From Eledone cirrhosa (lineage: Eukaryota): a stretch of DNA of 64,000 bases. A program made the position numbers and the translations under genes. Numbering within the stretch: position 1 is the first letter of the stretch; every line of letters starts with the position of its first letter. This document shows positions 9,035-51,511 of the stretch, piece by piece. The stretch spans positions 16,740,001 through 16,804,000 of the forward strand of contig OZ024763.1 of NCBI GenBank assembly GCA_964016885.1, in the 5' to 3' direction. The notes beneath the pieces are model-generated. The model worked only from the letters and a program-made list of their open reading frames with translations, was not told where the DNA came from and ran no database searches.

Positions 9035-9631
9035 TATAATTGAATAAACAAGAGAGATGAACACTAATATAAACATACATGTGTTCGAATTGTAAGGACT
9101 AGGTTTGCTAGGGTGAAAAAATACTAACTACAGCAATATGGGTTGTCAGACTTAATTTTAAGTTGTAAATTACCTGGTAATGACTAGAAACGGCATTGCC
9201 TTCGCTTAACACTTTAGTGTTCAAACCGGCCAGAATTCTCTACCCCTTTCTGTTGAAACCGGCTTTAACCGGTTGCTCAAACTGATGTTAAGGTATTGTT
9301 TACAAAATAAATAATATCGAAATCTCATAGATTCGATATTATGTGACATAATTATGTGAGGTAAAGCCTTTTCCGTTTAAATATAATAGTATATATAGAG
9401 TAATGTGAATGCTAAAGGGTTAATAAGATGTTGCGAAACAGTTTCCAAAACTGTCTAGTTGTTACCAGGCAATTGCCCGATATTTGTCTGTTATTTTTCT
9501 TCATTTACTACTTAAAATTAAGTCTGACAACCCATATTGCTGTAGTTAGTAGTTTTTCACCCTAGCAAACCTAGTCCTTACAATTCGAACACATGTATGT
9601 TTATATTAGTGTTCATCTCTCTTGTTTATTC

Positions 9632-9638
<7 letters not shown>
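9035..9638. repeat. Long inverted repeat (PLE pLTR-like fold-back) with a MITE in its loop
   Basis: 9035-9162 is the near-perfect reverse complement of 9511-9638. Inner arms 9167-9205 and 9433-9475 also pair. Confidence 0.9.
9210..9419 (+). mobile_element. piggyBac-like MITE, family 1
   Basis: TTAA flanks at 9206-9209 and 9420-9423; ends CACTTTAGTGTTCA...TGAATGCTAAAGGG. Homologous to 25709-25929 and 51512-51729. Confidence 0.8.
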
Positions 9639-9689
<51 letters not shown>

Positions 9690-9771
9690 TATAAACTCTT
9701 GAATTAACAAACCGAGTTTTTGATGGGTTGGTATTGTAGGGGTTAAAGTTTGTGCAAAACATAATAGCAAC

Positions 9772-9805
<34 letters not shown>

Positions 9806-10084
9806 TCAACAATAATAATAAATATGATAAGAATAATGATGATAATAATAATAATAATGATTTTATATATTGCCTTAGATAGAATCTTAAGATCAAACAT
9901 TTTCATTATTAAGAATAGACACCTTTAAATAGGAAAATCAATGATCATAGAAATTCAGAAAAAAAAAAATCAATATGGCCAGCCTAAGTTGGTGATCATT
10001 CAGCCATTTTAGATACCTAAAACATATGAATGGTAACTTGACATTTCATATTTTGTGGGCAAACTGGTGTTGTATTTTAACTGT

Positions 10085-10666
10085 GTATCTCTGTATGGGT
10101 GTATGGGTGTGTGTCTGTGTATGTATTGATGTATGTATGTATGTATGTGTGTTTTTGCACGTGCGTGTGTGTCTGCATTGATGTATGTATGTGTGTGTTC
10201 ATGTGTGTGTGTGTATATGATATGTGTGTGTCTGCATTGATGTACGTGTGTGTGTATATATATATATGTGTGTCTGCATTGATGTATGTATGTGTGTGTT
10301 CGTGTGTGTGTATATATATATGATATGTGTGTGTCTGCATTTATGTATGTGTGTGTTCATGTGTGTATGTGTATGTGAGTGTGTGTGTATATATATATGT
10401 GTGTGTCTGCATTGATGTATGTATGTGTGGGTTCATGTGTGTATGTGTGTGTCTGCATTGATGTATGTATGTGTGTGTGTATATATATGATATGTGTGTG
10501 TCTGCATTGATGTATGTATGTGTTCATGTATGTGTGTGTGTGTGTGTGTATGTGTGTGTGTGTGTGTGTGTGTATATGATGTGTGTGTCTGCATTGATGT
10601 ATGTGTGTGTGTGTGTGTGTGTGTATGTATATGTGTGTGTCTGCATTGATGTATGTATGTGGGTGT

Positions 10667-10703
<37 letters not shown>

Positions 10704-11153
10704 ATATGTGTGTGTCTGCATTGATGTATGTATGTGTGTGTTCATGTGTGTATGTGTATATATATGATGTGTGTGTGTCTGCATTGATGTATGTATGTGT
10801 GTGTTCATGTGTGTGTGTATGTGTGTGTGTGTGTGTATATATATATGTGTGTGTGTCTGCATTGATATATGTATGTGTGTGTTCATGTGTGTATGCGTGT
10901 ATGTATATATATGATATATGCCTGTATATATGACATATATGTGTGTGTATGTGTGTGTGTATATATGCGTGTGCGTGTATATAAGATATATGTATGTATA
11001 TATATATATATATTTCTGCATATAATTGTGTGTGTGTATATTTGTATATATATGTGTGTATGTGCGTGTGTATATATGTATATACATATATGTGTGTGTG
11101 TGTATAGTATGTATATATATATATGTGTGTGTGTGAATATATATATGTATGTG

Positions 11154-11191
<38 letters not shown>

Positions 11192-11295
11192 GATGTGTGT
11201 GTGTATATATGTATATAGATGTGTGTGTGTGTATATATATGTATATATATACATCAATATGTATATATATACATCAATATGTATATATATATACA
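10085..11295. repeat. (TG)n/(TA)n region with a recurring GTCTGCATTGATGTATG minisatellite core
   Basis: The core recurs about 13 times between 10170 and 10870, separated by variable (TG)n. Confidence 0.9.
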
Positions 11296-11300
11296 CCAAT

Positions 11301-11910
11301 ATGTCAGGTCACCAGTTGGTGCTACTGGTAACATGTATTCCATTACAACCTGTCCCATGGTCGGGTCGTTGGCGACTAAACTGCCAACCCCACCAAGGTT
11401 TCTCGGTGAGGAGGGTGACTTTGGACATCCTGCAGGACTAAAAACAAAACCTGTCAAAGGGCAAAGGAGCTCTTAAGAGTCAATGGTCATCCAAAATCAC
11501 TGGGAGAGATGACCCCTTAGCCTTTGTCAAGGCAGAATTCTAGGAGAAGGAAAACTATGATATAACACCTGCAACCCTGATGGTATCCAATGATGTTGAC
11601 TTGTTCTTCTTTTTGGTAAATATCATCTTGGTTAAGAGAGTGGGACTGGCTTTGTGCAGTGCCTTTGCTCACTATAAAAGCTTCACGGCACAGGCATTGC
11701 TTTATATCTGGAGATCTCTCTGCACTTGTCGTCACATGGTACCATGGGCCCAGCACTATGTGTCAATAGTTGTCACAAGTGTAGTGTTTGTACCAGAGTT
11801 TTCAAGTCGCTGGCTGGACTAAAAAGTCACACTCGTTCAGCGCATCGGTAGGGGTTCTCCTACATGGATATAAAGTAGTGGCCGTACTCGAAAACGAGTT
11901 GGCAGCCACC
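11301..11910 (+). mobile_element. Probable RTE-related 5'UTR-like or non-autonomous retroelement fragment
   Basis: Higher-GC island between (TA)n tracts. It contains CTAGGAGAAGGAAAACT, a motif I recall from RTE 5' regions. No coding support. Confidence 0.35.
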
Positions 11911-12351
11911 ATATATATACATCAATCATAGATTACATTGTTGGTCGCTATTTAAAAAAAAAAATGTATGTATATATATATACACACACACACATACACA
12001 CACACTCACATACACACACATATATATATATATATATGCATATATTAAACAATGGCCAAGCAGGCAATCTCTGATTTGTAAGAGCCCCCCCCCCCCACCA
12101 CCACCACCACCACCACCCCTACCCCCAATCTCGTTTCATCAATAGGTTTTCTTACAATAACTTTTTTCACGAAGTAAATCTATTCCATCCCCATCCCCAC
12201 CCCCGCCACGACCGATGAAACTTAAGGGTCAATATGTCTTGTGGTCCTGGCTGACAGGAAGGAGAGGACATTGCCCCCGGGAGGGTGACGAGGGAGGTGT
12301 GTGTGGTAGCAGCCACTCCACTGCACGAGGTTTGCACATGTGGTCTGGTGG

Positions 12352-12640
12352 GGCCAAACTCTGTCCCCTATAGTAATGAGTAGGGATGCGGTGTGGGAGG
12401 GGGGGGGGGAACTCTGTCCCCTATAGTAGTGAGTAGGGATGTGGTCTGGGGGGGAGGGGCCAACTCTGTCCCCTATTATAGTGAGTAGGGATGTGGTCTG
12501 GGGGGGGGGGCAACTCTGTCCCCAATAGTAGTGAGTAGGGATGTGGTCTGAGGGGGCCAACTCTGTCCCCTATAGTAGTGAGTAGGGATGTGGTCTGGGG
12601 CCAACTCTGTCCCTATTGCAGTGAGTAGTGATGTGGTCTC
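12352..12640. repeat. Minisatellite of about 6 units of 44-53 bp with a variable G-tract
   Basis: AACTCTGTCCCCTATAGTAGTGAGTAGGGATGTGGTCT(G)n at about 12357, 12410, 12462, 12512, 12559 and 12603. Confidence 0.9.
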
Positions 12641-12963
12641 TCCTTTTTACCTCCACCACATTCTGTCTCCCCACTTGATCCCCTTCAGTTATTATTAAAC
12701 CGGGTCCCTGCTACATTCAATGCTCCAATCCAATCTAGGGCCTTCTCACTCCTGTTGGAGGAACCCCTCCCTGGTTGACCTCCACCACTTTCTGTTTTGT
12801 TTTGGTCATGTCTTCAGGGGTGAAGCTGTACTCACCAGGCTTGGCCAATTGCAGGTTGGTGAGGCTATTTAACCCATAGTTGGGGTGGATGGCCGTTGAC
12901 TCTGAGGAGTTCATCTGTTGTTGTTTTTTGTGCTGCTGGGGTTCCACTTACCTTTCTCACTGG

Positions 12964-13895
12964 ACCAGTGTCTGGTGGGGGAGCTGGTTTAGTTGCTGAC
13001 CACTTGACCAAGAAGCAGGTTGTACTGGGTTACATAGTACCAATAGCAAGCAGAAACCTGACCAGACCAGTGTCTGGTGGGGGAGCTGGTTTAGTTGCTG
13101 ACCACTTGACCATGAAGCAGGTTGTACTCGGTTACATAGTACCAATAGCAAGCAGAAACCTGACCAGACCAGTGTCTGGTGGGGGAGCTGGTTTAGTTGC
13201 TGACCACTTGACCAAGAAGCAGGTTGTACTCGGTTACATAGTACCAATAGCAAGCAGAAACCTGACCTGACCAGTGTCTGGTGGGGGAGCTGGTTTAGTT
13301 GCTGACCACTTGCCAAGAAGCAGGTTGTACTCGGTTACATAGTACCAATAGCAAGCAGAAACCTGACCAGACCAGTGTCTGGTGGGGGAGCTGGTTTAGT
13401 TGCTGACCACTTGCCAAGAAGCAGGTTGTACTCGGTTACATAGTACCAATAGCAAGCAGAAACCTGACCAGACCAGTGTCTGGTGGGAAAGCTGGTTTAG
13501 TTGCTGACCACTTGCCAAGAAGCAGGTTGTACTCGGTTACATAGTACCAATAGCAAGCAGAAACCTGACCAGACCAGTGTCTGGTGGGGGAGTTGGTTTA
13601 GTTGCTGACCACTTGACCATGAAGTAGGTTGTACTGGGTTACATGGTACTAGTAGACGACAGAAGCCTGATATTACTAAACTAGGGTCTGATAGGGGAAC
13701 TGGTTTAGTCACCGACCCTCAACCCTCAACCATGAAACAGGTTGTTCTGGGTTACGTGTCACCAATAGCAGGCAAAAGGCTAGTCTACTCACCAGACCAG
13801 TGTCTGGTGGGAAAGCTGGTTTAGTCCCCGACCACTTGACCATGAAGCAGGTTGTAGTGGGTTACATGATACCAGTAGCCGGAGGATGCCTGATC
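12964..13895. repeat. 101-102-bp minisatellite: about 6-7 homogeneous units plus 2-3 diverged units
   Basis: ACCAGTGTCTGGTGGGGGAGCTGGTTTAGTTGCTGACCACTTG... at 12964, 13066 and 13168, then 101-bp units after a 1-bp deletion. Confidence 0.95.
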
Positions 13896-14422
13896 AGAGA
13901 TAGCCTCTACTAGTACTGTACTAGTAAAAAAACATTGATATTGAGCACTTTTTCCTTGTGTTTGTGAATCCAAACGAATCTATAGTTCTTCTTCATAGAT
14001 AAAAATAATGTCTTTTATATTTGTTTATATCTTTCTAAATTAAGATAAGATAGGGGATGGCAGGTAAAATTTACCCCAAAGGATAGAAATCAGCAGTTAG
14101 AAGTGTGTTGACCTGTAGAAGTCATAGCAAGAATTGAGAAAGGGATAAAATAAATGAGAGGGGATCTCACAAACATTAAATTTTCTCATCAGCTTTTAGA
14201 CTGCCTGTGGTTTCAACAATTTAACTAAAAGGATCATGTAAGATAGATGGCTTGTAACAACGTAGAAATAAATATCTCTGTTGGTATAATGTTTATGATA
14301 GAAACAAATAGATTGATGGGCAGACAGATAGGTAAGAGAGAGAAAAGAATGAAGTGCATTCACTCGATTTCAGGTCACTGTAAGAAAGGCCATTTTTGCC
14401 AGGTACTTTCTATTTAGTGACT

Positions 14423-14735
14423 ACTAGACCACCTGTGACCCATCGGGTCACATTCGCTTAAAAATATCTTTTAAAATCATGTTCACTTAAAAATAATTTT
14501 TAAATAATTAAAATGTACACAGACATTTTCCTCCTTCAATCTACTCTCTCACAACCACTATCTCTTCCTCTCTATCTTTCTCTCTCTCTCTCTATTTATG
14601 AAAGTACCCGGAAAAACATCGTATCTCAGGAACCCATGCTCCGATTTACGCGAAAGTATTTTCCCATTATGCACTGTTTTGGCTGTATTACATTACTGAC
14701 AAGACACAATCAGAGTTTTAGTAGTATATAGATAG
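14423..14735 (+). mobile_element. Possible non-autonomous Helitron/Helentron-like element
   Basis: Starts ACTAGA followed by hairpin GTGACCC-ATC-GGGTCAC and ends GAGTTTTAGTAGTATATAGAT. It interrupts TTTAGTGACT|ATATC..TTTTGCCAGG, the intact junction seen in the adjacent tandem repeat, with no clear TSD. Confidence 0.45.
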
Positions 14736-15405
14736 ATATCCTTTTTGCCAGGTATTGTACTATTAAAATAATGGGTACTGTACTAGTAAAGTACTCTCTA
14801 TTGATATTGAGCACTTTTTACAGTGTGTTTGGGATAGGGAATCCAAAGACTTCTATAATTCCTGAAAACATTGTCTCTTATATTTGTCTACATCTTTCTA
14901 TTTAGCGACTATATCATTTTTGCCGGGTACTATACTAATAAAATGACAGGTACTGTACTAGTACAGTTCTCTATACTGATATTGAGCACTTTTTACAGTG
15001 TGTTTGTGTCTGTAATTCTGGAGAAATCTAGAATTCCTGAAAACATTGTCTCATCTTTCTATTTAGTGACTATATCATTTTTGCCAGGTACTATACTAGT
15101 AAAATAACGGGTACTGTACTAGTAAAGTACTCTATATTGGTATTGAGCACTTTTTACAGTGTGTTTGTGTCTGTAATTCTGGAGAAATCTAGAATTCCTG
15201 AAAACATTCTCATCTTTCTATTTAGTGACTATATCATTTTTGCCAGGTACTATACTAGTAAAATAACGGGTACTGTACTAGTACAGTACTCTATATTGGT
15301 ATTGAGCACTTTTTACAGTGTGTTTGTGTCTGTAATTCTGGAGAAATCTATAATTCCTGAAAAGAGTGTCTCTTATATTTGTCTCCATCTTTCTCTTCAG
15401 TGATT
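14736..15405. repeat. Tandem repeat, about 4 units of 160-175 bp
   Basis: TTTTTGCCAGGTA...GGTACTGTACTAGTA...TTGAGCACTTTTTACAGTGTGTTTG at about 14742, 14917, 15078 and 15237. Confidence 0.9.
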
Positions 15406-15496
15406 GTATCTCGTAGACTTTTAAGTTCGTAAAGTGTAAGATAAACAACTAACACAACTATATAAGAACAACAGACTGATTTATTGATAAAATATA

Positions 15497-21799: not shown

Positions 21800-21835
21800 T
21801 CTTCTGATGAAGGACTAGCGTCCGAAACGTTAAGA
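21800..21835 (+). ncRNA. Minimal type I hammerhead ribozyme motif (PLE type)
   Basis: TCTT-CTGATGA-A-GGAC(TAGC)GTCC-GAAA-CG-TT-AAGA: 4-bp stem I, 4-bp stem II, palindromic ACGT stem III. Confidence 0.8.
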
Positions 21836-22576: not shown

Positions 22577-22741
22577 ATTCTGGACTAAAATAGTAGTAAT
22601 CTTAGTCCAGAATTAGCCGTCGAAACGGCTTGAGCTCAGCCGTCGGGGTCCTACTCGTTCCTATTACCCACTCTACTACCCTAAGTATTGAGTACTTTGG
22701 TGCGTTATGTTCCACCTGGTTCCTTACCACATTTCCTTCGT
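22577..22741 (+). mobile_element. pLTR-like fragment that begins inside hammerhead stem II (3' half of an HHR)
   Basis: AATTCTGGACTAA...TTAGTCCAGAATT hairpin, then AGCCGTC-GAAAC-GGCT(TGAGCTC)AGCC-GTC-GGGGTC. Inverted homolog at 23568-23703. Confidence 0.7.
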
Positions 22742-23158
22742 TATATATATATATAAATATATATCATCATCATCATTTAAAATCTATCTTCTATGCTAGC
22801 ATGGGTTAGACGGGAATTGTCCCACTTGAGGCAAGATTGATGGGGTGACCGTGTCCTGCTTGTATAGGACTGTATCTGGCAGGTTTTCTACGGCTGGATG
22901 CCCTTCCTAACACCAACCACATTTTCAGTGAGTGCTGGGTGCTTTTTACCCTGTTACCTACACGGCCACCTTACAGTGTGGACTGTGTTTTTTGGTCGTG
23001 ACACCTACATGAGCTCATTAGTGGGGACTGGATGTTGTGGTACCAACATAACTTTATAGAGAAAGGGGTGGTGTTGTCAGGAATTGGAGGACGGAGTAGG
23101 GGTAGTAAGTTAGGTGTATGTTTATAAAAAAAACACCAAAGAATCAACCGGTTTTCAA

Positions 23159-23531: not shown

Positions 23532-23567
<36 letters not shown>

Positions 23568-23571
<4 letters not shown>

Positions 23572-23763
23572 GGAAATGTGGTAAGGAACCAGGTGGACCA
23601 TAACGCGTCAAAGTACTCAATACTTAGGGTAGTAGAGTGGGTGATAGGAACAAGTAAGACCCCGACGGCTGAGCTCAAGCCGTTTCGACGGCTAATTCTG
23701 GACAGTCCAGAATTAGCCGTCGAAACGGCTTGAGCTCAGCCGTCGGGGTCTTACTTGTTCCTA
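23568..23763. repeat. pLTR-like fragment ending in a perfect palindrome (23645-23763, 59-bp arms, 1-nt loop at 23704)
   Basis: ATAGGAACAAG...CTAATTCTGGAC-A-GTCCAGAATTAG...CTTGTTCCTAT. Confidence 0.92.
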
Positions 23764-24155
23764 TATATATATATATATATTAATATACAAGTAGAAGCTT
23801 AGTAAAATCGAATCTTTGGCTGCGGCCAAGTAAAGTCGACCTACAATAAGGAATGAGTAGCAAAGCACTCAATAACGGTAGGACCTCAGAGTAATAACAT
23901 TACGTTTAGATAGCTTGACAAATTGAAAATTGCGGCAAGCAAAACCCAGCCATACAATACCAAAACAACGAAAAAACTAATCCGGTTAGACAACAGACTT
24001 GGACAAATCGAATGATATTCTGCAATACGTTCGATATATTTCTATGAATCCGAAATCATCAATCCAGCTTATGTAACACGTAAGCTTGTGGTATTCTATG
24101 ATCGAACAGGGGATTCACGTCATCGACAGGTATTTCGTTCTAGGCCTCAAACTGG

Positions 24156-25120
24156 TTTCTAATGAAAAACACTGTCTATGTCATTAACCCTTTCATTACC
24201 ATATTTCTAATTAAAGACACTGTCTATGTCATTAACCTTTTCATTACCATATTTCTAATGAAAGACACTGTCTATGTCTTTAACCCTTTCATTACCATAT
24301 TTCTAATGAAAGACACTGTCTATGTCATTAACCCTTTCATTACTATATTTCTAATGAAAGACACTGTCTATGTCATTAACCCTTTCATTTCCATATTTCT
24401 AATGAAAAACACTGTCTATGTCATTAACCCTTTTATTACGATATTTCTAATGAAAGACACTGTCTATGTCTTTAACCCTTTCATTACCATATTTCTAATG
24501 AAAGACACTGTCTATGTTATTAACCCTTTCATTTCCATATTTCTAATGAAAGACACTGTCTATGTCTTTAACCCTTTCATTACCATATTTCTAATGAAAG
24601 ACACTGCCTATGTCATTAACCCTTTCATTAACATATTTCTAATGAAAGACACTGTCTATGTCATTAACCCTTTCATTACCATATTTCTAATGAAAGACAC
24701 TGTCTATGTCATTAACCCTTTCATTACCATATATCTAATGAAAGACACTGTCTATGTCTTTAACTCTTTCATTACCATGAAAGACACTGCCTATGTCTTT
24801 AACCCTTTCATTGCCATATTTCTAATGAATGACACTGTCTATGTCATTAACCCTTTCATTACCATATTTCTAATGAAAGACACTGTCTATGTCTTTAACT
24901 CTTTCATTACCATGAAAGACACTGTCTATGTCTTTAACCCTTTCATTGCCATATTTCTAATGAAAGACACTAAGTATGTCTTTAACCCTTTCATTGCCAT
25001 ATTTCTAATGAGAGATACTATCTATGTCTTTAACCCTTTCATTGCCATATTTCTAATGAAAGACACTGTCTATGTCTTTAACCCTTTCATTACCATATTT
25101 CTAATGAATGACACTATCTA
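24156..25120. repeat. 48-bp tandem array (about 20 units) corresponding to the left end of the adjacent piggyBac-like MITE
   Basis: Unit TTAACCCTTTCATTACCATATTTCTAATGAAAGACACTGTCTATGTC(A/T). The last unit runs directly into the MITE body. Confidence 0.95.
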
Positions 25121-25563
25121 AGCTATTTCATATAATTTGGAAAATAATCAAGAATTTGGAGAGATTTTACTAACTTTCTCATTTTTAAGTTGGTGTTTGG
25201 AACATAACTTAACAAAGGTTCTTACATAGAATTGTGATGGAAGGTTTTTAGATAAATATAAACAATTTCATATAGAAAGGATTAAATTGTGATTTTTCAA
25301 AAATAATCATAAATTTTGGAGGATTTAGTAATATAACTTAGTTTCTCAAGGTTTTTTAATCATTTTTAAATTATCTATTTTTTGGAAATGTTGAGTAGAT
25401 ATATATTTATTGATAATTTAGAAGTTTCAACATAGTTTTTTTTTATTATGAAAGATATTCTAACAAGTTGGATATAAAAACCCCTGGACAGAAAAAAACA
25501 TTGTCAGCGTTGCTTGTAATTTAGAAACGGGGAGCAGTTTTAGGGAGTTGGGTATCAAAAGGG
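25082..25563 (+). mobile_element. piggyBac-like MITE, family 2
   Basis: TTAA|CCCTTTCATTACC ... GGTATCAAAAGGG|TTAA (imperfect 13-bp TIR, TTAA on both sides). Confidence 0.7.
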
Positions 25564-26887: not shown

Positions 26888-27102
26888 ATATTTCTAGTAT
26901 AAGCACAAGGCCAGTAATTTTGGGGGAGGGGAAAGGTGATTAAATCGATCCCCAGTATGCTACTGGTACTTTATTTTATCGACCCTGTAAGGATGAAAGG
27001 CAAAGTTAACCTCGACGGGATTTGAACTCAAATCGTAAAGGGACGTAACTCTGTGCTGCAAAGCATGGTGTCCAACTCCCTACCGATACTGCCAATCCAC
27101 TG
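26888..27102 (-). mobile_element. SINE family B with a flanking direct repeat CCTTTCTCATAATATTTCT
   Basis: Family B body on the minus strand; the direct repeat lies at about 26877 and 27103. Confidence 0.8.
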
Positions 27103-27124
27103 GCCTTTCTCATAATATTTCTCA

Positions 27125-27331
27125 GAAAACCTCCATGCTTCCTGAGATTCACCAACACTACACCTAATATTCCCCCTCCATACACACATGTATATCATGA
27201 CTCATGCACTATTCACTTCTCTGACATTTGTGTATTACCCTATGTACTATACATGCACCTTTGACGAGTTGTAGTGCATCTGAGCACTGTACACAATAAT
27301 TTCATTCTTATTATATTATTATTATTATATT
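27125..27331 (+). mobile_element. Possible CR1/L2-type LINE 3' end with an (ATT)n tail
   Basis: Ends GTGCATCTGAGCACTGTACACAATAATTTC(ATT)n. Family assignment is from memory only. Confidence 0.35.
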
Positions 27332-27332
27332 A

Positions 27333-28456
27333 GGGGTCGGTGAATTGGCAGTATCGGTAGAGGGTCGGACACCATGCTTTCCAGCATAGTTACGTCCCTT
27401 TACGGTCTGAGCTCAAATCCCGCCGAGGTTAACTTTGCCTTTCATCGTTACGGGGTCGATAAAATAAAGTACCTGTAATGCACTGGGTAATTGCTGGCCT
27501 TGTGCCTAAAGTAGAAACAAAATAAAGTACCAGTAATGTACTGGGTAATTGCTCGCCTTGTGCCTAAAGTAGAAACAAAATAAAGTACCTGTAATGTACT
27601 GGGTAATTGCTGGCCTTGTGCCTAAAGTAGAAACAAAATAAAGTACCAGTAATGTACTGGGTAATTGCTGGCCTTGTGCCTAAAGTAGAAACAAAATAAA
27701 GTACCAGTAATGTACTGGGTAATTGCTGGCCTTGTGCCTAAAGTAGAAACAAAATAAAGTACCTGTAATGTACTGGGTAATTGCTCGCCTTGTGCCTAAA
27801 GTAGAAAGAAAATAAAGTACCAGTAATGTACTGGGTAATTGCTGGCCTTGTGCCTAAAGTAGAAACAAAATAAAGTACCAGTAATGTACTGGGTAATTGC
27901 TGGCCTTGTGCCTAAAGTAGAAAGAAAATAAAGTACCAGTAATGTACTGGGTAATTGCTTGCCTTGTGCCTAAAGTAGAAACAAAATAAAGTACCAGTAA
28001 TGTACTGGGTAATTGCTCGCCTTGTGCCTAAAGTAGAAACAAAATAAAGTACCAGTAATGTACTGGGTAATTGCTGGCCTTGTGCCTAAAGTAGAAACAA
28101 AATAAAGTACCTGTAATGTACTGGGTAATTGCTCGCCTTGTGCCTAAAGTAGAAACAAAATAAAGTACCTGTAATGTACTGGGTAATTGCTGGCCTTGTG
28201 CCTAAAGTAGAAACAAAATAAAGTACCAGTAATGTACTGGGTAATTGCTCGCCTTGTGCTTAAAGTAGAAACAAAATAAAGTACCTGTAATGTACTGGGT
28301 AATTGCTCGCCTTGTGCCTAAAGTAGAAACAAAATAAAGTACCTGTAATGTACTGGGTATTTGCTCGCCTTGTGCTTAAAGTAGAAACAAAATAAAGTAC
28401 CTGTAATGTACTGGGTATTTGCTCGCCTTGTGCCTAAAGTAGAAACAATTATTATA
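27333..28456 (+). repeat. SINE family B whose 58-bp 3' segment is tandemly amplified about 17 times
   Basis: Head at 27333-27460; unit AAAATAAAGTACCAGTAATGTACTGGGTAATTGCTGGCCTTGTGCCTAAAGTAGAAAC at 27461, 27519 and onward; finishes with the normal AATTATT end. Confidence 0.95.
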
Positions 28457-30732: not shown

Positions 30733-30826
30733 TTTTAACAGTAATATTGTGAACTGTTATTTAAAAAAACCCATTATTTCTATCATTTTGTCATTGTTGG
30801 CGGTTTAGTTGTCGCCATTGTCATAA

Positions 30827-33195
30827 CCTTTACCACTGTCATCACCACACCACACCACCACCTTTACCACTGTCATCACCACACCACCACCACCACTGTC
30901 ATCACCACACCACCACCACCACCACCACTGTCATCACCTTTACCACTGTCATCACCACACCACCACCACCTTTACCACTGTCATCACCACACCACCACCA
31001 CCACCTTTACCACTGTCATCACCACACCACCACCACCACTGTCATCACCACACCACCACCACCACTGTCATCACCACACCACCACCTTTACCACTGTCAT
31101 CACCACACCACCACCTTTACCACTGTCATCACCACACCATCACCTTTACCACTGTCATCACCACACCACCACCTTTACCACTGTCATCACCACACCACCA
31201 CCTTTACCACTGTCATCACCACCACCTTTACCACTGTCATCACCACACCACCACCACCACTGTCACCACCACACCATCACCTTTACCACTGTCATCACCA
31301 CACCACCACCATTACCACTGTCATCACCACACCACCACCTTTACCACTGTCATCACCACACCACCACCATTACCACTCACCACCACACCACCACCTTTAC
31401 CACTGTCATCACCACACCACCACCTTTACCACTGTCATCACCACACCACCACCTTTACCACTGCCATCACCACCACCAGACCACCACCTTTACCACTGTC
31501 ATCACCACACCACCACCTTTACCACTGTCATCACCATCACCTTTACCACTGTCATTACCTTTACCACTGACATCACCATCACCACCACCTTTACCACTGT
31601 CATCACCACACCACCACCTTTACCACTGTCATCACCACACCATCACCACCACCACCACTGTCATCACCAGACCACCACCTTTACCACTGTCACCACCACA
31701 CCACCACCTTTACCACTGTCATCACCACACCATCACCTTTACCACTGTCACCACCACACCACCACCTTTACCACTGTCATCACCACACCATCACCACCAC
31801 CACCACTGTCATCACCACACCACCACCTTTACCACTGTCACCACCACACCACCACCTTTACCACTGTCACCACCACACCACCACCTTTACCACTGTCATC
31901 ACCACACCACCACCTTTACCACTGTCACCACCACACCACCACCTTTACCACTGTCATCACCACACCATCACCACCACCACCACTGTCATCACCACACCAC
32001 CACCTTTACCACTGTCACCACCACACCACCACCTTTACCACTGTCACCACCACACCACCACCTTTACCACTGTCACCACCACACCACCACCTTTACCACT
32101 GTCATCACCACACCACCACCTTTGCCACTGTCATCACCACACCACCACCTTTACCACTGTCACCACCACACCACCACCTTTACCACTGTCACCACCACAC
32201 CACCACCTTTACCACTGTCATCACCACACCACCACCTTTACCACTGTCACCACCACACCACCACCTTTACCACTGTCATCACCACACCATCACCACCACC
32301 ACCACTGTCATCACCACACCACCACCTTTACCACTGTCACCACCACACCACCACCTTTACCACTGTCACCACCACACCACCACCTTTACCACTGTCACCA
32401 CCACACCACCACCTTTACCACTGTCACCACCACACCACCACCTTTACCACTGTCATCACCACACCATCACCTTTGCCACTGTCATCACCACACCACCACC
32501 TTTACCACTGTCATCACCACACCATCACCACCACCACCACTGTCATCACCACACCACCACCTTTACCACTGTCACCACCACACCACCACCTTTACCACTG
32601 TCACCACCACACCACCACCTTTACCACTGTCATCACCACACCACCACCTTTACCACTGTCATCACCACACCACCACCTTTACCACTGTCACCACCACACC
32701 ACCACCTTTACCACTGTCATCACCACACCATCACCACCACCACCACTGTCATCACCACACCACCACCTTTACCACTGTCACCACCACACCACCACCTTTA
32801 CCACTGTCACCACCACACCACCACCTTTACCACTGTCACCACCACACCACCACCTTTACCACTGTCATCACCACACCACCACCTTTACCACTGTCACCAC
32901 CACACCACCACCTTTACCACTGTCATCACCACACCATCACCACCACCACCACTGTCACCACCACACCACCACCTTTACCACTGTCACCACCACACCACCA
33001 CCTTTACCACTGTCACCACCACACCACCACCTTTACCACTGTCACCACCACACCACCACCTTTACCACTGTCATCACCACACCACCACCTTTACCACTGT
33101 CACCACCACACCACCACCTTTACCACTGTCATCACCACACCATCACCACCACCACCACTGTCACCACCACACCACCACCTTTACCACTGTCATCA
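30827..33195. repeat. 29-bp minisatellite (CCACCTTTACCACTGTCA(T/C)CACCACACCA), about 2.4 kb
   Basis: The period of 29 is visible, e.g. CTGTC at 32041 and 32070. It is followed by (CAT)/(CAC) low-complexity sequence to about 34325. Confidence 0.95.
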
Positions 33196-33555
33196 CTGTC
33201 AGTGTCATCACCATCGCTGTCATCACTATCATCGTCACCATCACCATCCTTGTCTTCCAATATCATCCTCCAACACCACCATCACCGTCATCATTACATT
33301 ATCATCACCATCATCATCATCATCACCTTCCCCGTCTTCCATCACCGCCAACATCATCCCCAACATCATCAACACCATCATCATCATCATCATCGACATC
33401 ATTATCTACCATCACTGTCAACATCGCAGCCACCACCACCGCCACCACCACCACCACTACTGATGATGATGATTCTCACTGACCATCATCACCATCATCA
33501 CCATCATTATCATCATCATCACGAATACCCCCATCACCATTTTCACATCATCCCC

Positions 33556-33586
<31 letters not shown>

Positions 33587-34286
33587 CCATCATCATCACC
33601 ATCACCACACCACACCATCATCACCATCATCACCATCACCATCACCATCATCACCATCATCATCACCATCATTATCCCCACCACCGATATCCCCATCATC
33701 CCCCACAACTGTCAACATCATCTCCAAAACCTCCTCATTAAAAATCACCACCACTGCTGCCGCCTCCTCCACCACCACCAAAGTCAACACCACCATTACC
33801 ACGACAATGATCTCAACCAAAATCAGCATCCCCCCCCCTACACACACACACCACCACCACCACCACCAAAACTACCTTTGCCATCATCACACTACCAATA
33901 CCACCCCACCACTACCACTCCACCACTACCACCCCACCACTACCACTAACGCCCCATCACCACTACCACCACCAACAATAATAATCATCACAAGCCCTAC
34001 CACCCCACCACTAACACCCACCACCATCACAAACCTACTACCACTACCACCCCACCACTACCAACAATCACACCACCTACCACTACCGCCACTACCACCA
34101 CTACCACCAACAACCCACCACCACCACCACCACCACCAACAACAACAATAATCATCACAAGCCCTACCACCCCACCACTAACACCCACCACCATCACAAA
34201 CCTACTACCACTACCACCCCACCACTACCAACGATCACCACACCACCTACCACTACCGCCACTACCACCAACAACCCACCACCACC

Positions 34287-34974: not shown

Positions 34975-35161
34975 TCATCATCATCATTTAACGTCCATCT
35001 TCCACACGAGCATGGGTTTGGAATCATTGATATTAAATAAATGGAAACTATATTTATAAAACCATATTTATTCTATTATGTATATTTCAAAGGTAGCAAA
35101 ACTTTGGTACGCCCTCATCAGATAAAATTGAATTACCAACAAATTAAATATCCCTTTTGCT

Positions 35162-35193
<32 letters not shown>

Positions 35194-35732
35194 TAAACAA
35201 ATAATGAATAAACAATTCCTTATATTAAACAAAAAAAGTTCATTATTTAACGATCGTTTCTAGGATATATATGTGTTAGAATTGGTATGCATATTCAACA
35301 GATCTATGTACAAAATTATACAAAATTATACAAATTATCAAGATTAAATATACATACCAAACATATATACGCCGTCTTCAGAAATAATTATTTCTGAAGA
35401 CGGCGTATATATGTGTTTGGTATGTATATTTAATCTTGATAATTTGTATAATTTTGTATAATTTTGTACATAGATCTGTTGAATATGCATACCAATTCTA
35501 ACACATATATATCCTAGAAACGATCGTTAAATAATGAACTTTTTTTGTTTAATATAAGGAATTGTTTCATTGTTTTATTCATTATTTGTTTAATATTTTA
35601 TCTTGACTCTGTATACCGTTTATCTTTCACCGAAAGTGGTTTTTCATTACATCTCTTCTTTCCATGATATCCGGAATACATTGAGTTCTTCATACGGATT
35701 GGACACTACCGTAAACTCTTGGTAGATTTATC

Positions 35733-35734
<2 letters not shown>
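34782..35734. repeat. Large spacer-less palindrome centred at 35387/35388; left arm interrupted at about 34925-35185
   Basis: Centre GTCTTCAGAAATAA|TTATTTCTGAAGAC. 35187-35387 pairs with 35388-35599, and 34782-34924 pairs with 35592-35734. Confidence 0.92.
35076..35127 (-). ncRNA. Minimal hammerhead motif (same family as 40537 and 40799)
   Basis: Minus strand: CTGATGA-GGGCGTACCAAAGTTTTGCTACCTTT-GAAA-TATA. Stem II is partly decayed. Confidence 0.55.
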
Positions 35735-35771
<37 letters not shown>

Positions 35772-37048: not shown

Positions 37049-37395
37049 GGAGGCACATGGCTTAGTGGTTAGAGCACTGCCTTGCAATCGAAAGGTTGTG
37101 AGTTCAATTCTCAAACCGGGTGATGTGTTGTTTCCTTGAGCAAGACACTTTATTTCACATTGCTCCAGTTTACTCAGCTGTAGAAATGAGATGAGAGGGA
37201 CTGGGGTCCATATCATTCCACTGCAAAGTGGTCGTGGAGGTGCCACGGCAAAAAAGCACCCAGCACTCACTGTAAATGAGGTTGGTGTTAGGAAGGGCAT
37301 CCAGCTGTAGAAATCAAGCCAGATTCAGTTCCCGTCCCACCCTTGCAAGCAGGGAAAAAGCGGACTTAAAACGAAATGATGATGATGATGATGAT
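37049..37395 (+). mobile_element. Full-length SINE family A (RTE-type tail)
   Basis: A box TGGCTTAGTGG, B box GAGTTCAATTCTC, LINE-matching tail and (ATG)n. Confidence 0.9.
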
Positions 37396-37635
37396 ATATA
37401 TATATATACACCGTTCAAGAGTAACCAATCTTAAAGAGAGAGGTGGAGATAGGAGAGGAGAGATTGGTGAATTAGTTAGAAGCCAAAGCGTAAAGGCATG
37501 TGCTCAATGTGCAATATGCAGTAGAAAGCAGCTATGTGCCCGGGTTCAATATGTTGACAATCTTTTAATAATGTCTTCCTTGTGAAAGTTGTGGTCTTGT
37601 TTTGCTTAACTAATGAATATATATATATATATATA

Positions 37636-37973
37636 TCATCATCATCATCATCATCATCATACGTCCGCGTTTTCCCTGCTTGCAAGGGTGGGACGGGAAC
37701 TGAATCTGGCTTGATTTCTACAGCTGGATGCCCTTCCTAACACCAACCTCATTTACAGTGAGTGCTGGGAGCTTTTTTGCCGTGGCACCTCCACGACCAC
37801 TTTACAGTGGAATGATAGGGACCCCAGTCCCTATCATCTCATTTCTACAGCTGAGTAAACTGGAGCAATGTGAAATAAAGTGTCTTGCTCAAGGAAACAA
37901 CACATCACCCGGTCTGAGAATTGAACTCACAAGCTTTCGATTGCAAGGCCAATGCTCTAACCACTAAGCCATG
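37636..37973 (-). mobile_element. Full-length SINE family A, inverted relative to 37049-37395
   Basis: Near-identical reverse complement of the neighbouring copy. Confidence 0.9.
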
Positions 37974-38049
37974 TTTTCTAGCATGTTCTTATAGTACTGA
38001 CTCGTTTTTTCGTCCTTTTAGTTCGCCCCAATGTTGGTCTATCCTTTCA

Positions 38050-38477
38050 TGTACCCTTTTAAGAAAACCCACTGTACTAATAGGAAATGTATCATATGTA
38101 AGGTGAACCCCCGTATAAACTGTAAAACTAGAAACGTAGTCTATAGCATAAGATGTACAGAGGGTACTTGCAGAAACATGACAACAACATACATAGGTGA
38201 GACAGCTCATAGCATAGGTGAAAGGATAGACCAACACTGGGGGGAACTAAAAGGACGAAAAAACGGGTCAGTACTATACGAACAGGCCAGACAACAACAT
38301 GACGGTAACATAGACAACATAGAAATTAGAATAATATCTAAACATAGAAATGACCCAGCAGATAGGCAAATCAGAGAGGCCAGTGAAATAGAACTTAGAA
38401 GTCCAAGACTAAACAGAAAGAATGAATGGAATAACAACAACACCCAAACAAACAACACTGACTTAAGAGAAGTATAA
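38050..38477 (+). pseudogene. GIY-YIG endonuclease domain of a Penelope-like element
   Basis: CTNRKCIIC...CKTRNVVYSIRC...C...TYIGETAHSIGERIDQH...RQIREASEI...LNRKNEW: Cys linker, VVY/YIG, and the catalytic R, E and N. Confidence 0.9.
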
Positions 38478-38742
38478 ATAAATAAATAAATAAATAAATA
38501 CATACACAAGCACAATAACAACAAACACATATAAACACACACGAGTAAAGATAGAATACATTAACCAATACGCAGTCACCCAATCACAAACACACATCAA
38601 ACAAAACACTATACACACACGCAAACGCATGCGCAAAGAAGACAAAATAAAATAAACAAACAAACAAATAAATAAATAAATTATATAAACAGACTAAATA
38701 AAGATGGCGTAGACATACAATGTAACGGGAGGAAACAATAGC

Positions 38743-38784
38743 ACCACTGACGATGTTGCAGATGTGCAACGAAAGAACTTTGAT
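38743..38784 (+). ncRNA. Minimal hammerhead motif downstream of the GIY-YIG ORF
   Basis: ACCA-CTGACGA-T-GTTGCA(GATG)TGCAAC-GAAA-GAAC-TT-TGAT: perfect 6-bp stem II, stem I 3 of 4 pairs. Confidence 0.72.
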
Positions 38785-38984
38785 AAACTATATATATGTG
38801 TTTGTGTATATATTGTATCTGTATTACTTTTGACCGTCGGTCAGTCAATGGCAACATTGAGGACCGAATAAATTAGATTACCGATATAAAAGACACAGAA
38901 GCGAAAAGCGAAAACCAACCAAACAGTGAGTGTGTTCTGTTATTAATTCTGGCAATATTACACAAATATGACCCTCCCCAAGTA

Positions 38985-39034
<50 letters not shown>

Positions 39035-43707: not shown

Positions 43708-43739
<32 letters not shown>

Positions 43740-43858
43740 ATATACACACATATATACACATATATATATATATATATATACATACATACACACACATACA
43801 CACTGTATACACACTGTATACATATATATACACATATATATATATATATGTATGTGTA
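41235..43858. repeat. Compound (TA)/(TG)/(CA) microsatellite region with minisatellite cores (GTGGGCATATGC; CACACTGTATACAT)
   Basis: Direct reading. Confidence 0.9.
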
Positions 43859-44072
43859 AGATGTGCCTTCTAAACCTTCCCGGCAATCTCCTATATATGG
43901 TGTTTTATCAGTTGTTACCCAGTACACTCCACAATACAGCGGACATCTTGTTATTGTCTTCTCTATTAAATACTCATTATTGCTATTGTCTCTAATTGTT
44001 ACATACAAAACAATAACAGCTTTGTTTCACAACTTTCTTATAAATTATTTATATAAAGAATACTTCTTCTCT

Positions 44073-45265: not shown

Positions 45266-45474
45266 AATGTTTATTGTTGGTGTAGTAGTTGTTATTCATT
45301 ATTCATTAATATCATCTTTTGATGAGTTTCATTTTTTTGCATGTCTCTCTCTCTCTCCCTCTCTCTCTCTCCCTCTCTCTCTCCCTCTCTCACTATCTCC
45401 CTCCCTCTCTCACTATCTCCCTCCCTCTCTCTAACCCCCCTCTCTCTCTCACTCTCTCTCTATCCCTCTCTCCT

Positions 45475-45569
45475 ATATGTGTGTATATATATGTTTGTGT
45501 GTAAGTATGTATATATGTGTGTGTGTGTATATATATGTGTGTAAATATTTATATATGTTTATATATATG

Positions 45570-45655
<86 letters not shown>

Positions 45656-45713
45656 CATATGTATATATATATATATATATATACATATGTATATATATAT
45701 ATATATACATATG

Positions 45714-45799
<86 letters not shown>

Positions 45800-45805
45800 C
45801 ATATG

Positions 45806-45838
<33 letters not shown>

Positions 45839-45849
45839 GTATACATATG

Positions 45850-45902
<53 letters not shown>

Positions 45903-45939
45903 GTATATATATACATATGTATATATATATATATATATG

Positions 45940-45993
<54 letters not shown>

Positions 45994-46015
45994 ATATATA
46001 TATGTATGTATATAA
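45475..46015. repeat. (TA)n microsatellite with TG/CA interruptions
   Basis: Direct reading. Confidence 0.95.
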
Positions 46016-46224
46016 TGCGTCAGGGCCTGAATATATATTTTACATTTGTTATTAGTAATATTTCTATTATATTACCATTGTTGTTGTTTTTCTTCTTCTT
46101 CTTTTTCTTCCTCTTCTTAACATTATCATTATTGTTGTTGTTGTTGTTACATCACAAACATAAACTAAAACATCCTCTCGTCCTTATCCTGGCAGTTCTA
46201 GATTTACGATGTATTCTTAATATG

Positions 46225-47256
46225 AACAACAACAACAACACCAACAACAATAACACCAACAACAACACCAACAACAACACCAACAACAACACCAACAACA
46301 CCACCAACACCAACAACACCACCAACACCAACAACAACAACAGCACCAACAACAACAACAGCAGCACCAACAACAACATCAACAACAACACCAACAACAA
46401 CACCACCAACAACAACACCAACAACAACCACAGCACCAACAAAAACAGCACCAACAACACCAACAACACCAACAACAACAACAGCACAAACAACACAAAC
46501 AACACAAACAACAACAACAACACCAACAACAACACCAACACCAACAACAACACCAAAAAAAAAACAAAAAACACCAAAAACACCAACAACACCAACAACA
46601 ACAACAACAACAACACCAACAAGAACAACAACAACAACAACACCAACAAGACCAACAACAACACCAACAACAACACCAACAACAACAACAACAACAACAG
46701 CACCAACAACACCACCAACAACAACAACACCAACAACACCAACAACACCAACAACACCAACAAGACCAACAACAACAACACCAACAACAACAAGACCAAC
46801 AACAACACCAACAACAACACCAACAACACCAACAACAACACCAACAACACCAACACCACCAACAGCACCAACACCAACAACACCAACAACAACAACAGCA
46901 CAAACAACACAAACAACACAAACAACAACAACAACACCAACAACAACACCAACACCAACAACAACACCAACACCACCAAAAACACCAAAAACACCAACAA
47001 CACCAACAACAACAACAACACCAACAAGAACAACAACAACAACAACAACAACACCAACAAGACCAACAACAACACCAACAACAACACCAACAACAACAAC
47101 AACAACAACAACAGCACCAACAACACCACCAACAACACCAACAACAACAACAACACCAACAAGACCAACAACAACACCAACAAGAACAACAACAACAACA
47201 ATAGCAGCAGCACCAACAACAACACCAACAACACCAACAAGACCAACACCACCACC

Positions 47257-47287
<31 letters not shown>

Positions 47288-49975
47288 GCACCACCAACAA
47301 CGCCAACAACAACAACAGCACCACAACAGCAGCACCAACAACAACAACACCATCAACAACACCAACATCAACAACACCAACAACAGCAACAGCACCAACA
47401 ACACAAACACAAACAACACCAACATCAACAACACCAACATCAACACCAACAACACCAACAACAACAACACCAACAACAACAACACCAACAACACCAACAA
47501 CAACACCAACAACAACAACAGCACCAACAACAACAACACCAACAACACCAACAACAACACCAACAACAACACCACCACCACCACCAACACCAACAACACC
47601 AACAACAACACCAACAACAACACCAACAACAACAACAGCACCAACAACAACAACACCAACAACACCAACAACAACACCAACAACAGCACCACCACCACCA
47701 CCAACACCAACAACACCAACAACAACACCAACAACAACACCACCAACAACAACACCAACAACAACACCACCAACAACAACACCAACAACAACACCACCAA
47801 CACCAACAACACCACCACCTACAACACCAACAACACCAACAACAACACCAACAACACCAACAACACCAACAACAACAACACCAACAACAACAACACCAAC
47901 AACACCAACAACAACACCAACAACACCAACAACAACACCAACAACACCAACAACACCACCAACAGCACCAACAACAACAACAACAACACCAACAACACCA
48001 ACACCAACAACAACACCAACAACAACACCACCAACAACAACACCACCAACAACACCAACAACAACACCAACAACAACACCAACAACACCAACACCAACAA
48101 CAACAACACCAACAACAACAACACCAACAACAACAAGACCAACAACAACACCAACAACAACACCAACAACACCAACACCAACAACACCAACAACACCACC
48201 AACAGCACCAACAACAACAACATCAACAACACCAACAACACCAACAACACCAACAACAACACCAACAACAACAACAACAACACCAACACCAACAACAACA
48301 CCAACAACAACACCACCAACAACAACACCAACAACACCACCAACACCAACAACACCAACACCAACAACACCAACACCAACAACAACAACACCAACACCAA
48401 CAACACCACCAACAACAACACCAACAACACCACCAACACCAACAACACCAACAACACCAACACCAACAACACCAACAACAACACCAACAACAACAACACC
48501 AACAACACCAACACCAACAACACCAACAACAACACCAACAACAACAACACCAACAACAACAACACCAACAACAACACCAACACCAACACCAACACCAACA
48601 ACACCAACAACACCAACACCAACAACACCAACAACACCAACACCAACAACACCAACACCAACAACACCAACAACAACAACACCAACACCAACAACAACAA
48701 CAACAACAACACCAACAACACCACCAACAACAACAACACCACCAACAACAACACCAACACCAACAACAACACCAACACCAACAACAACACCAACAACAAC
48801 ACCAACACCAACAACACCAACAACACCAACAACACCAACAACAACAACACCAACAACACCACCAACAACACCAACAACAACAACACCAACACCAACAACA
48901 CCAACAACAACACCAACAACACCAACACCAACAACAACAACACCAACAACAACAACACCAACAACACCAACACCAACACCAACAACACCAACACCAACAA
49001 CAACAACACCAACAACACCAACACCAACACCAACAACACCAACACCAACAACACCAACAACAACAACAACAACACCAACAACAACAACACCAACAACACC
49101 AACAACAACACCAACAACAACAACACCAACAACACCAACACCAACAACACCACCAACACCAACACCAACAACACCAACACCAACAACACCAACAACAACA
49201 ACAACAACAACACCAACCAAAAACACCAACACCAACAACACCAACAACACCAACACCAACAACACCAACAACACCAACAACAACACCACCAACACCAACA
49301 ACAACACCAACAACACCAACAACACCAACACCAACACCACCAACAACAACACCAACATCACCAACACCAACAACACCAACACCAACACCACCAACACCAA
49401 CACCACCAACACCAACAACACCAACACCAACACCACCAACACCAACAACAACACCACCAACACCAACAACACCAACACCACCAACACCAACACCAACAAC
49501 ACCAACACCAACAACAACACCAACAACAACAACACCAACAACACCAACAACAACAACACCAACAACACCAACAACACCAACAACACCACCACCAACACCA
49601 ACAACACCAACAACACCAACAACACCAACAACAACAACACCAACAACAACAACACCAACACCAACAACACCAACAACAACAACACCAACAACAACAACAC
49701 CAACAACACCAACAACACCAACAACACCAACAACAACACCAACAACACCAACAACACCAACAACACCAACACCAACACCAACAACACCAACACCAACAAC
49801 ACCAACAACACCAACAACACCAACAACACCAACAACAACACCAACACCAACAACAACAACACCAACAACAACAACAACACCAACACCAACAACAACACCA
49901 ACACCAACAACACCAACAACACCACCAACAACAACAACAACAACACCAACACCAACACCAACAACAACACCAACA
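46225..49975. repeat. 3.75-kb mixed (AAC)/(ACC) trinucleotide array
   Basis: Almost only A and C on the plus strand; followed by (GAT/GGT)n to about 50200. Confidence 0.95.
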
Positions 49976-50466
49976 TGATGATCGTAATGATGATGATGAT
50001 TATGGTGGTGATAGTGATGGTGGTGGTGGTGATAGTGATGATGATGGTGGTGATGGTGGTGGTGGTGATAGTGATGATGGTGGTGATGGTGGTGGTGGTG
50101 ATAGTGATGATGATGATGGTGGTGGTGGTGGTGATAGTGATGATGATGGTGGTGATGATGGTGGTGGTGATGATGGTGGTGATGGTGGCAATGTGGTGGG
50201 TAATAGGAACAGTATCCAGCCATAGAAACCAAATCAAAATCAGTTCTGTGTGAGCAAGACACAGTCATCAGATCTGACTTGTCTCACAACAGGACAACCT
50301 GTCTAACCCATGCTAACATGGTGAATGGACATTAAATAGTGATGATAATGATATATACATAGCAATGAACTGTTTTATATATCTATATATATATATATAG
50401 ATATAAGTATGTATGTATACGTACATACATATATGTATACAGACGTACAGTAGCATGTATATATAT

Positions 50467-50670
50467 GCCAGTTGAAGGAAGACGTGGTAGAGGTAGACCA
50501 CGAAAAACATGGGCGGAGCTGGTGAGAACAGACCTCAGATCATTGAAGCTCACGGTGGAGATGACGAGGGACCGTGACGAGTGGAGAGATGCTGTGCTGA
50601 ATAAGACCCGTCCCACCCTCGCAAGCAGGGAAAAGCGGACGTAAAATGATGATGATGATGATGATGATGA
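50467..50670 (+). pseudogene. RTE LINE 3' fragment
   Basis: Near-identical to 1800-1996 (PVEGRRGRGRPRKTW...), with an (ATG)n tail. Confidence 0.9.
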
Positions 50671-50830
50671 TATATACATACAGGCACACATATATATATG
50701 CACGTATCAGTTTACCGAACATTTATTATAATGTTCGCTTTGTACGTTTGTAAACAAACGGACAGCCTGATTTACGCCGTACAGTGTTTAGGCAACCACG
50801 TCACCTTTTTGTTCAACACTGACACAGGAA

Positions 50831-50871
50831 CGATGTACTAGTTTCAAGCTTGTTAGCTATCGTCAGCACCG
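50831..50871 (-). ncRNA. Minimal type I hammerhead ribozyme, the best-preserved copy
   Basis: Minus strand: CGGTG-CTGACGA-T-AGCT(AACA)AGCT-T-GAAA-CTAG-TA-CATCG: 5-bp stem I, 4-bp stem II, palindromic ACTAGT stem III, GUA triplet. Confidence 0.85.
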
Positions 50872-51119
50872 TATACCTTTCTACCAGATGGTTGAATGTT
50901 CGAAAGTATATATTTTCCTTATGAAAATTAACGGCTGAGCAGCCTAATTTGCATGAAGCTTGAAGCTTGAAACTAGTACATCGTTCCTGTGTCAGTGTTG
51001 AACAAAAAGGTGACGTGGTTGCCTAAACACTGTACGGTTTAAATCAGGCTGTCCGTTTGTTTACAAACGGACAAAGCGAACATTATAATAAATGTTCGGT
51101 AAACTGATACGTGCATATA

Positions 51120-51194
<75 letters not shown>

Positions 51195-51511
51195 GATACT
51201 GTACGTCTGTATACATATATGTTTGTACGTATACATACTTACATTTAAGTAAGTGCCGTACTAAGAGTGAGAAATGAAATTTCGTTTCATTCTATTCCAT
51301 ATATAGATATAGATATATAAAACAGTTCATTGCTATCTAACCTTTCTATCCACATGCAGCAATTTGCCATATATGTTCTCATCTCTATCCTTTTCTCCCC
51401 ATCTTTACACTTTTTCTTAATTTTCCGAAGAAGGACATATGTCTGAACGTCATTATCAACTCTTTTCTGTTGTGTTCTTCTGAGAATAAATCATGAACCT
51501 TAGAACGTTAA

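Follow-up and report, generated by a model that had tools for sequence, protein, structure and literature searches.

What determines where the two arms meet when a Penelope-like element (PLE) is inserted head to head with an inverted copy of itself? The question is raised by a 64,000-nucleotide (nt) stretch of the Eledone cirrhosa genome (GenBank assembly GCA_964016885.1, contig OZ024763.1, positions 16,740,001 to 16,804,000 of the forward strand; hereafter the window, to whose own numbering coordinates refer), in which self-comparison recovered four inverted repeats, all of them members of multi-copy PLE families with type I hammerhead ribozyme motifs. A preliminary description of the window had proposed that stem II of the hammerhead, folded as a hairpin in nascent complementary DNA (cDNA), primes itself or triggers a template switch, such that the ribozyme fold would set the inversion site in general. 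We consider it probable that head-to-head PLE insertions form from two separately primed cDNAs of one RNA, which run to the 5' end of that RNA, likely its start site, and are then joined. Inverted pseudo-long terminal repeats (pLTRs), a tail on one arm, junction palindromes and self-priming as their proposed cause have already been published (PMC3846280, PMC8557442), and the origin of the tandem and inverted PLE structures is named as an open question in PMC8557442.

Pairing and joining of the two arms

The assembly spans 3.0 Gb, and the window consists mostly of microsatellites. We searched the genome with parts of each element. Of the 40 loci scored in each search the best 30 were taken, and 40 others were added by place, which amounts to a small share of each family (first-look candidates: 603 for the family A tail, 2018 for B, 2110 for C, 129 for D, 244 for F and 118 for H). 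Queries for families A-D, F and H lay 3' of the ribozyme core and were free of junctions, except in the first family A search, whose junction-containing query was biased; tests on family A are based on tail-only and incidental copies. Head-to-head junctions were mapped in 310 loci with (TA)n masked, and those with microsatellite filler or at a reference edge were excluded from the counts (B 8/22, C 2/15, D 1/17, F 1/31, H 3/10, A 0/93).

Each family has two fixed 3' ends, and its junctions almost always pair one short with one long, tailed arm (39/42 incidental junctions in A, 16/16 in D, 24/30 in F, 10/13 in C and 5/7 in H). Among all 159 junctions two joined long with long and one short with short, and the remaining exceptions were unclassified. 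Arms of one insertion also share subfamily variants (51/54 in A, where 29.9 were expected, and 6/6 and 9/9 in D), which fits a single template for both. In 19 junctions, including a family F copy in the window (35025-35161), the arms have no sequence in common.

These observations bear on an alternative in which one cDNA runs off the 5' end of the RNA, snaps back through a few paired bases and is copied, the endonuclease of the element cuts at the short site, and later deletions trim the arms. Such a process predicts that the tailed arm always reaches furthest 5', whereas the short arm lay more than 10 nt further 5' in 45 of the 159 junctions and the tailed arm in 17, with 20 against 1 in family F; in those 45, each arm contains sequence absent from the other, so that neither is a plain fold-back copy. 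Centres of 0-2 nt, such as AAATA-AT-TATTT, found three times in family D, are moreover hard to form within one strand, and inverted flanks are rare (A 2/90, D 0/16, F 2/30, with controls at about 1%). The shared variants do fit a snap-back, as do a few junctions that allow a 4-bp stem with a 6-7-nt loop (one each in A and D, L033 and L147) and an inverted flank at the family B repeat described below; published proposals attribute junction palindromes to self-priming (PMC3846280) and the tail to resolution by the endonuclease (PMC8557442). On balance we regard this alternative as unlikely.

The joints themselves were varied. Across 173 junctions of families A, B, C, D, F and H, the arms overlapped in 91, abutted bluntly in 14 and were separated by filler, often templated nearby, in 68, some of the long overlaps reflecting alignment over-extension.

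Family-specific 5' boundaries

The 5' ends of the arms stop at sharp boundaries that differ between families, at +41 relative to the CUGA core in A, -7 in D and -79 in F, and each of the three coincides with TCA(T/C)T, a sequence resembling an initiator. The arm end reaching furthest 5' in a junction fell at +41..+50 in 35 of 42 incidental family A junctions, at -9..+3 in 12/16 in D and at -81..-68 in 17/30 in F. Long copies read TC|ATT across the boundary in A (5/6) and D (10/10) and TC|AC in F (5/6), and a reference of 420-510 nt contains TCA[TGC]T just 2-3 times. The initiator idea had been set down as TCATT before family F, which has TCACT, was seen. Three families found de novo, K, L and O, start at TC|ATA, at CC|ATT and just 3' of TC|ATT, in small numbers. 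In raw DNA reads of three other samples, 340/643, 442/715 and 406/663 molecules ended at the family A +41 position, or 52-62% of the molecules at that place. The same reads contained strand-switch joints, in some of which the arms did not overlap. A further large read stop (L058:1630) was set aside, as it falls on AATT, probably the cut site of a restriction-site-associated DNA library.

From the initiator-like motif and the position upstream of the open reading frame (ORF), the boundary is likely the start site of the element's RNA; in a full-length family D copy, about 480 nt separate it from the downstream ATG, and the 5' leader contains both 3' ends. An initiator-like TCACT has been described in a rotifer pLTR (PMC3846280), and Penelope of D. 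virilis has an internal promoter in its pLTR (PMC2377424).

Two cDNAs could also have stopped at a strong block to reverse transcriptase (RT) or at an RNA processing site (structure, splicing or nuclease) rather than at a start site. The D and F boundaries do lie near the 5' base of a stem, a splice-acceptor-like tract is found 8 nt downstream of the F boundary, and an intron in D. virilis ends at helix I (PMC4209133). The predicted ribozyme cut also appears to serve as the boundary in a few copies, namely 3/16 truncated copies of family C, whose 5' end lies within 4 nt of it, and 2/8 of family H (L245, L249, L094 and L114 have their 5' end at the predicted cut), hinting at cleavage in vivo and a second kind of RNA 5' end. 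However, the structural context varies by family while the sequence motif recurs, and F arms retain bases upstream of the AG, with no common upstream exon. We give this reading little weight. Two of the copies at the predicted cut, L245 and L249, share the same junction and carry the tail on opposite arms.

Ribozyme landmarks and the repeats of the window

If stem II set the inversion site, arm 5' ends should be in excess there over a uniform expectation. This was the case in one family only, A, with 161/186 ends in stem or loop II (26.3 expected; 30 loci from the junction-biased query are included). Counts elsewhere were 1/28 in B (0.9 expected), 1/26 in C (2.0 expected; the window's own repeat is outside this count and would bring it to 2/28), 4/32 in D (8.9 expected), 3/60 in F (4.8 expected) and 0/14 in H (0.5 expected). 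Mapped against ribozyme landmarks, breakpoints thus share no stem II peak, and those of D and F peak 7 and 79 nt upstream of the core. Seven further hammerhead families found de novo (J-P; 2-7 listed rows each, some rows representing one insertion) have most of their junctions on the upstream side of the core, although a few arms of J meet at the loop II TTAA; the de novo search can see breaks in stem II, to which a core-anchored scan of J-P is blind. Families E and I show dispersed truncation and almost never formed inverted junctions (0 credible in 30 loci, and 1/30). The general rule is therefore refuted, and although one arm of each of the B and C repeats of the window starts in stem or loop II, we find the stem II explanation improbable. 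What stands of it is that the repeats are PLE inverted pLTRs carrying hammerheads, that their junctions are non-random and that the family A hotspot coincides with the apex of the extended stem II. Self-complementary pieces of stem II or III served as joining microhomology in a minority of cases (the window's B repeat; L034, L049 and L143 in A; L165 and L204 in J).

The window contains the following features of these families:

9035..9187, minus strand: family C left arm, with an internal deletion; 5' end close to where cleavage is predicted
9200..9638, plus strand: family C right arm; starts in loop II; interrupted by an insert
9210..9419, no strand: 210-bp insert between two TTAA, resembling a miniature inverted-repeat transposable element; a candidate for piggyBac type
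22577..22742, plus strand: second, independent family A insertion; inverted-arm stub, filler, long arm
23567..23703, minus strand: family A long (tailed) arm, without the CUGA core; 5' end at about +46 relative to the core, within loop II
23705..23764, plus strand: family A short arm; stem II 3' strand, GAAAC, stem III and GTC site, ending at (TA)n with the fixed short end
35025..35161, minus strand: family F insertion (L181); short arm with hammerhead (minus, to 35128) and tail-only plus-strand arm
35185..35388, minus strand: family D short arm; whole hammerhead; 5' end at the -7 boundary
35387..35735, plus strand: family D long arm; whole hammerhead with its core at 35394 and a cut predicted after 35528; overlaps the short arm by 2 nt (AT)
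38022..38985, plus strand: family H 5'-truncated copy of autonomous type; GIY-YIG-like ORF end followed by a pLTR whose hammerhead core lies at 38748
50670..50955, minus strand: family B left arm; intact hammerhead 50831-50871; extra piece at about 50404-50466, past a later insertion
50963..51300, plus strand: family B right arm with the long end; preceded by templated filler and beginning with AAGCTT of the stem II 3' strand

The family A repeat (23644-23764, 99.2% identity) has its centre at 23704, which had been described as the apex of a stem II hairpin. The centre does fall in loop II of a real hammerhead fold, as seen in long natural copies, but the long hairpin visible in the window is formed by the palindrome itself; natural stem II consists of CGGCTA/TAGCCG and an imperfect upper stem, alongside a stem I of ACCCC/GGGGT and a full stem III. 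The left arm extends to 23567 as an 80-nt tail that had been overlooked. The core is non-canonical in five of seven long copies, positions 3 and 8 being C3-A8 in four copies, A3-A8 in one and U3-A8 in two (L041, L052, L058, L128, L276, L278, L279), suggesting that most long copies may be inactive ribozymes. No ORF was found within 1.5 kb around family A copies.

The family A boundary, at the apex of the extended stem II, leaves half ribozymes without a core, as would be expected under the stem II explanation. However, folding back of a hairpin should leave its natural loop and 5' strand at the junction, and both are missing from nearly all family A junctions (L272 and L045 are possible exceptions); in L278 both arms span the whole ribozyme.

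In the family D repeat (35185-35601, 94.9%) the pivot reported at 35387 is real, but the hammerhead there is whole and the pivot sits in its stem I, on the 5' strand; both arms carry the full core. Stem I of this family has 10 bp, and the hammerhead (window 35394-35528) has a stem II of about 110 nt that is kept across subfamilies.

The family B repeat (50670-51144, 84%, gapped) bears out its description: beside an intact minus-strand hammerhead (50831-50871), a templated filler of 8 nt leads into the right arm, whose first bases are the palindromic hexamer AAGCTT in the 3' strand of stem II. It is the sole end in stem or loop II among 28 mapped family B arm ends, and thus an isolated event. 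In the family C repeat (9034-9170/9503-9639, 98.5%), neither arm starts at GCGAA as had been stated. In this family CTTCGC-TTAA belongs to loop II of the sense arm, which places the start of the right arm at 9200, 21 nt upstream of GAAA; the TTAA-flanked insert splits this arm. The left arm begins at about 9187, close to the cleavage site, and 12 nt of filler separate the two.

Both B and C consist of tandem non-coding units of about 460-540 bp with standard hammerhead cores, and no ORF was found for either. Families B, C and D show the type I core CUGANGA/GAAA/NUH with stems I-III, the minimum-free-energy fold differing from the hand-drawn one for C and for the window's D copy. A pattern scan of the window found 23 CTGANGA sites, several within hammerhead-like folds, and further hammerhead-like motifs of other families lie at 21805 (+), 25658 (-), 39119 (-), 39429 (-), 40542 (+) and 40849 (-). 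Among the 150 of 353 Rfam matches listed for the window there was no hammerhead family, the listed matches being microsatellite-driven microRNA noise. Octamer-like ATTTGCAT words occur about 60 nt upstream of the F boundary (L183, L191, L194) and in the family B unit (window about 50947-50954).

Protein-coding evidence comes from families D, F and H. One family D locus has a pLTR, a broken ORF and a second pLTR in direct orientation; the ORF has RT motifs, a Cys-rich linker and a GIY-YIG-like end, and shows 33-44% identity to 10 proteins that combine RT motifs with a YK..YIG region at the C terminus. Family H has an RVT_1 match (E=8e-5, below the curated cut-off) and a GIY-YIG-like end, and family F copies adjoin a GIY-YIG-like ORF end; Pfam searches gave no GIY-YIG match. 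With this PLE-type RT and GIY-YIG-like end (family D), direct and inverted pLTRs with an optional tail, and a hammerhead in the pLTR by pattern and folding, the elements have the features of endonuclease-containing (EN+) PLEs. The Cys-rich linker between RT and endonuclease in D (CNCR..CPL..C) and F is a feature of the Neptune clade, making these two families candidate members on sequence grounds.

A proposed model of insertion and its known relatives

Together, the strict pairing of arms, their mutually exclusive sequences and in vitro results on PAc, a Poseidon element of Anolis, favour two primed cDNAs, and we chart the following model. The element would insert at (TA)n, as seen in our data, and each target end would prime RT at one of two fixed internal sites, yielding one short and one tailed arm; the pairing is observed, and the priming is inferred from the lizard data. 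With priming sites about 60-340 nt from the 5' end of the RNA, many cDNAs would run off it, producing a hard boundary specific to each family. The cDNA ends would then be joined through 1-14 nt of microhomology or templated filler, both seen in the junction sequences, by a presumed repair pathway. The family A boundary would happen to fall in loop II, and in a few C and H copies the cut site of the ribozyme would take the place of the boundary. A more specific version, which we put forward tentatively as slightly short of an even chance, involves a dimer of RT that starts on the two target ends from two fixed internal sites in a single RNA, each cDNA running off a capped 5' end; junction hotspots would then map start sites from DNA alone, and the family A promoter would fire inside loop II, with a messenger RNA beginning with a half ribozyme that cannot cut.

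Several observations weigh against two cDNAs running to a start site. A variant marker in family F is not concordant between arms (3/8, with 4.3 expected), family B arms resemble one another no more within insertions than between them, later deletions inside palindromes could mimic non-overlapping arms, and a few junctions are secondary duplicates. The boundaries of H, M, J and P match the initiator motif poorly or not at all. Initiator consensus patterns include the strict YYANWYY and BBCABW, which matched 2 and 13, respectively, of 22 long copies. No downstream promoter element was apparent at the boundaries, TATA-like words were inconsistent, and an extra G before +1, the signature of a cap, was seen in about 10/48 arms by hand count, near background. 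At the window's family B repeat, a 30-nt flank outside both arms is duplicated in inverted orientation (50358-50400 / 51305-51337) and was absent from all other loci retrieved; either the target was already palindromic before insertion or copying extended into the flank. Many family A short arms (for example window 22580-22610, L045, L056 and L057) read ATTTTAG, which no long copy has, at a place where long copies have ATTTAG or ATTCAG, and some family A junctions hold long A/T runs; this suggests stuttering of RT at the template end or an unsampled master copy. Finally, in family A the boundary coincides with the 3' edge of the apical loop, and this family alone therefore cannot separate the models.

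That the palindromes are fold-back chimeras of assembly or library is scarcely credible given their fixed short and long ends, their varied fillers and the later insertions that interrupt arms. Raw reads of three samples moreover contain identical family A joints, some of which recur in contigs from a fourth run, even if this read support concerns family A joints in other samples rather than the window's own junctions.

Among known systems, the insertion unit of EN+ PLEs (PMC8557442, PMC3846280, PMC2377424) is alike in its 5'-truncated copies, adjacent inverted copy, junction palindromes, single tailed arm and AT-rich targets. It differs in that published tails are 30-40 nt long, against about 20-135 nt here, the junction is here mapped to a fixed family-specific boundary, and the arms are often not mutual copies, against the published self-priming. 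PAc cleaves and extends both strands, is predicted to act as a dimer and uses two internal start sites bounding a tail, with cleavage of the RNA not required (PMC11167929). Two fixed 3' ends bounding a tail, extension of both strands and an uncleaved RNA template are thus common to both systems; the PAc work was done in vitro, joining of inverted arms is not addressed in the parts of the paper available to us, and family D ends lie in the 5' leader rather than the ORF.

Twin priming of L1, treated together with L1 foldback junctions in PMC11702581, is the nearest known mechanism, with a second cDNA primed on the other target end and internal joining by microhomology. L1 inversions by twin priming, however, involve a loss or duplication of only 1-10 bp, whereas the two cDNAs of the present elements mostly span one common stretch and begin at fixed sites. 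The ribozymes resemble the minimal hammerheads of PLEs and non-LTR (long terminal repeat) retrozymes in an extra base before stem II, a short palindromic stem III in several families and tandem non-coding units in B and C (PMC4209133, bioRxiv 10.64898/2026.07.22.740005), and in the U3-A8 variant and opposite-strand pairs 100-700 bp apart (PMC4209133). They differ in the stem II of about 110 nt in D and, in A, in the mostly non-canonical core and the boundary inside loop II. A literature search found no published mapping of PLE junctions to ribozyme landmarks or start sites, although most subscription papers were outside its reach and supplements could hold such data; the available portions of PMC13282606 and bioRxiv 10.64898/2026.07.22.740005 added nothing on junctions. 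Young, high-copy families such as these offer hundreds of independent junctions for testing models of PLE insertion, and their hard boundaries predict start sites to the base.

Elsewhere in the window, inverted pairs of other common repeats with long spacers (37055-37974, 26961-27477 and 51864-52358) are, as far as seen, not head-to-head PLE junctions, and long minisatellite or simple-repeat arrays at 24144-25121, 30745-33741 and 46150-50260 give rise to spurious long ORFs.

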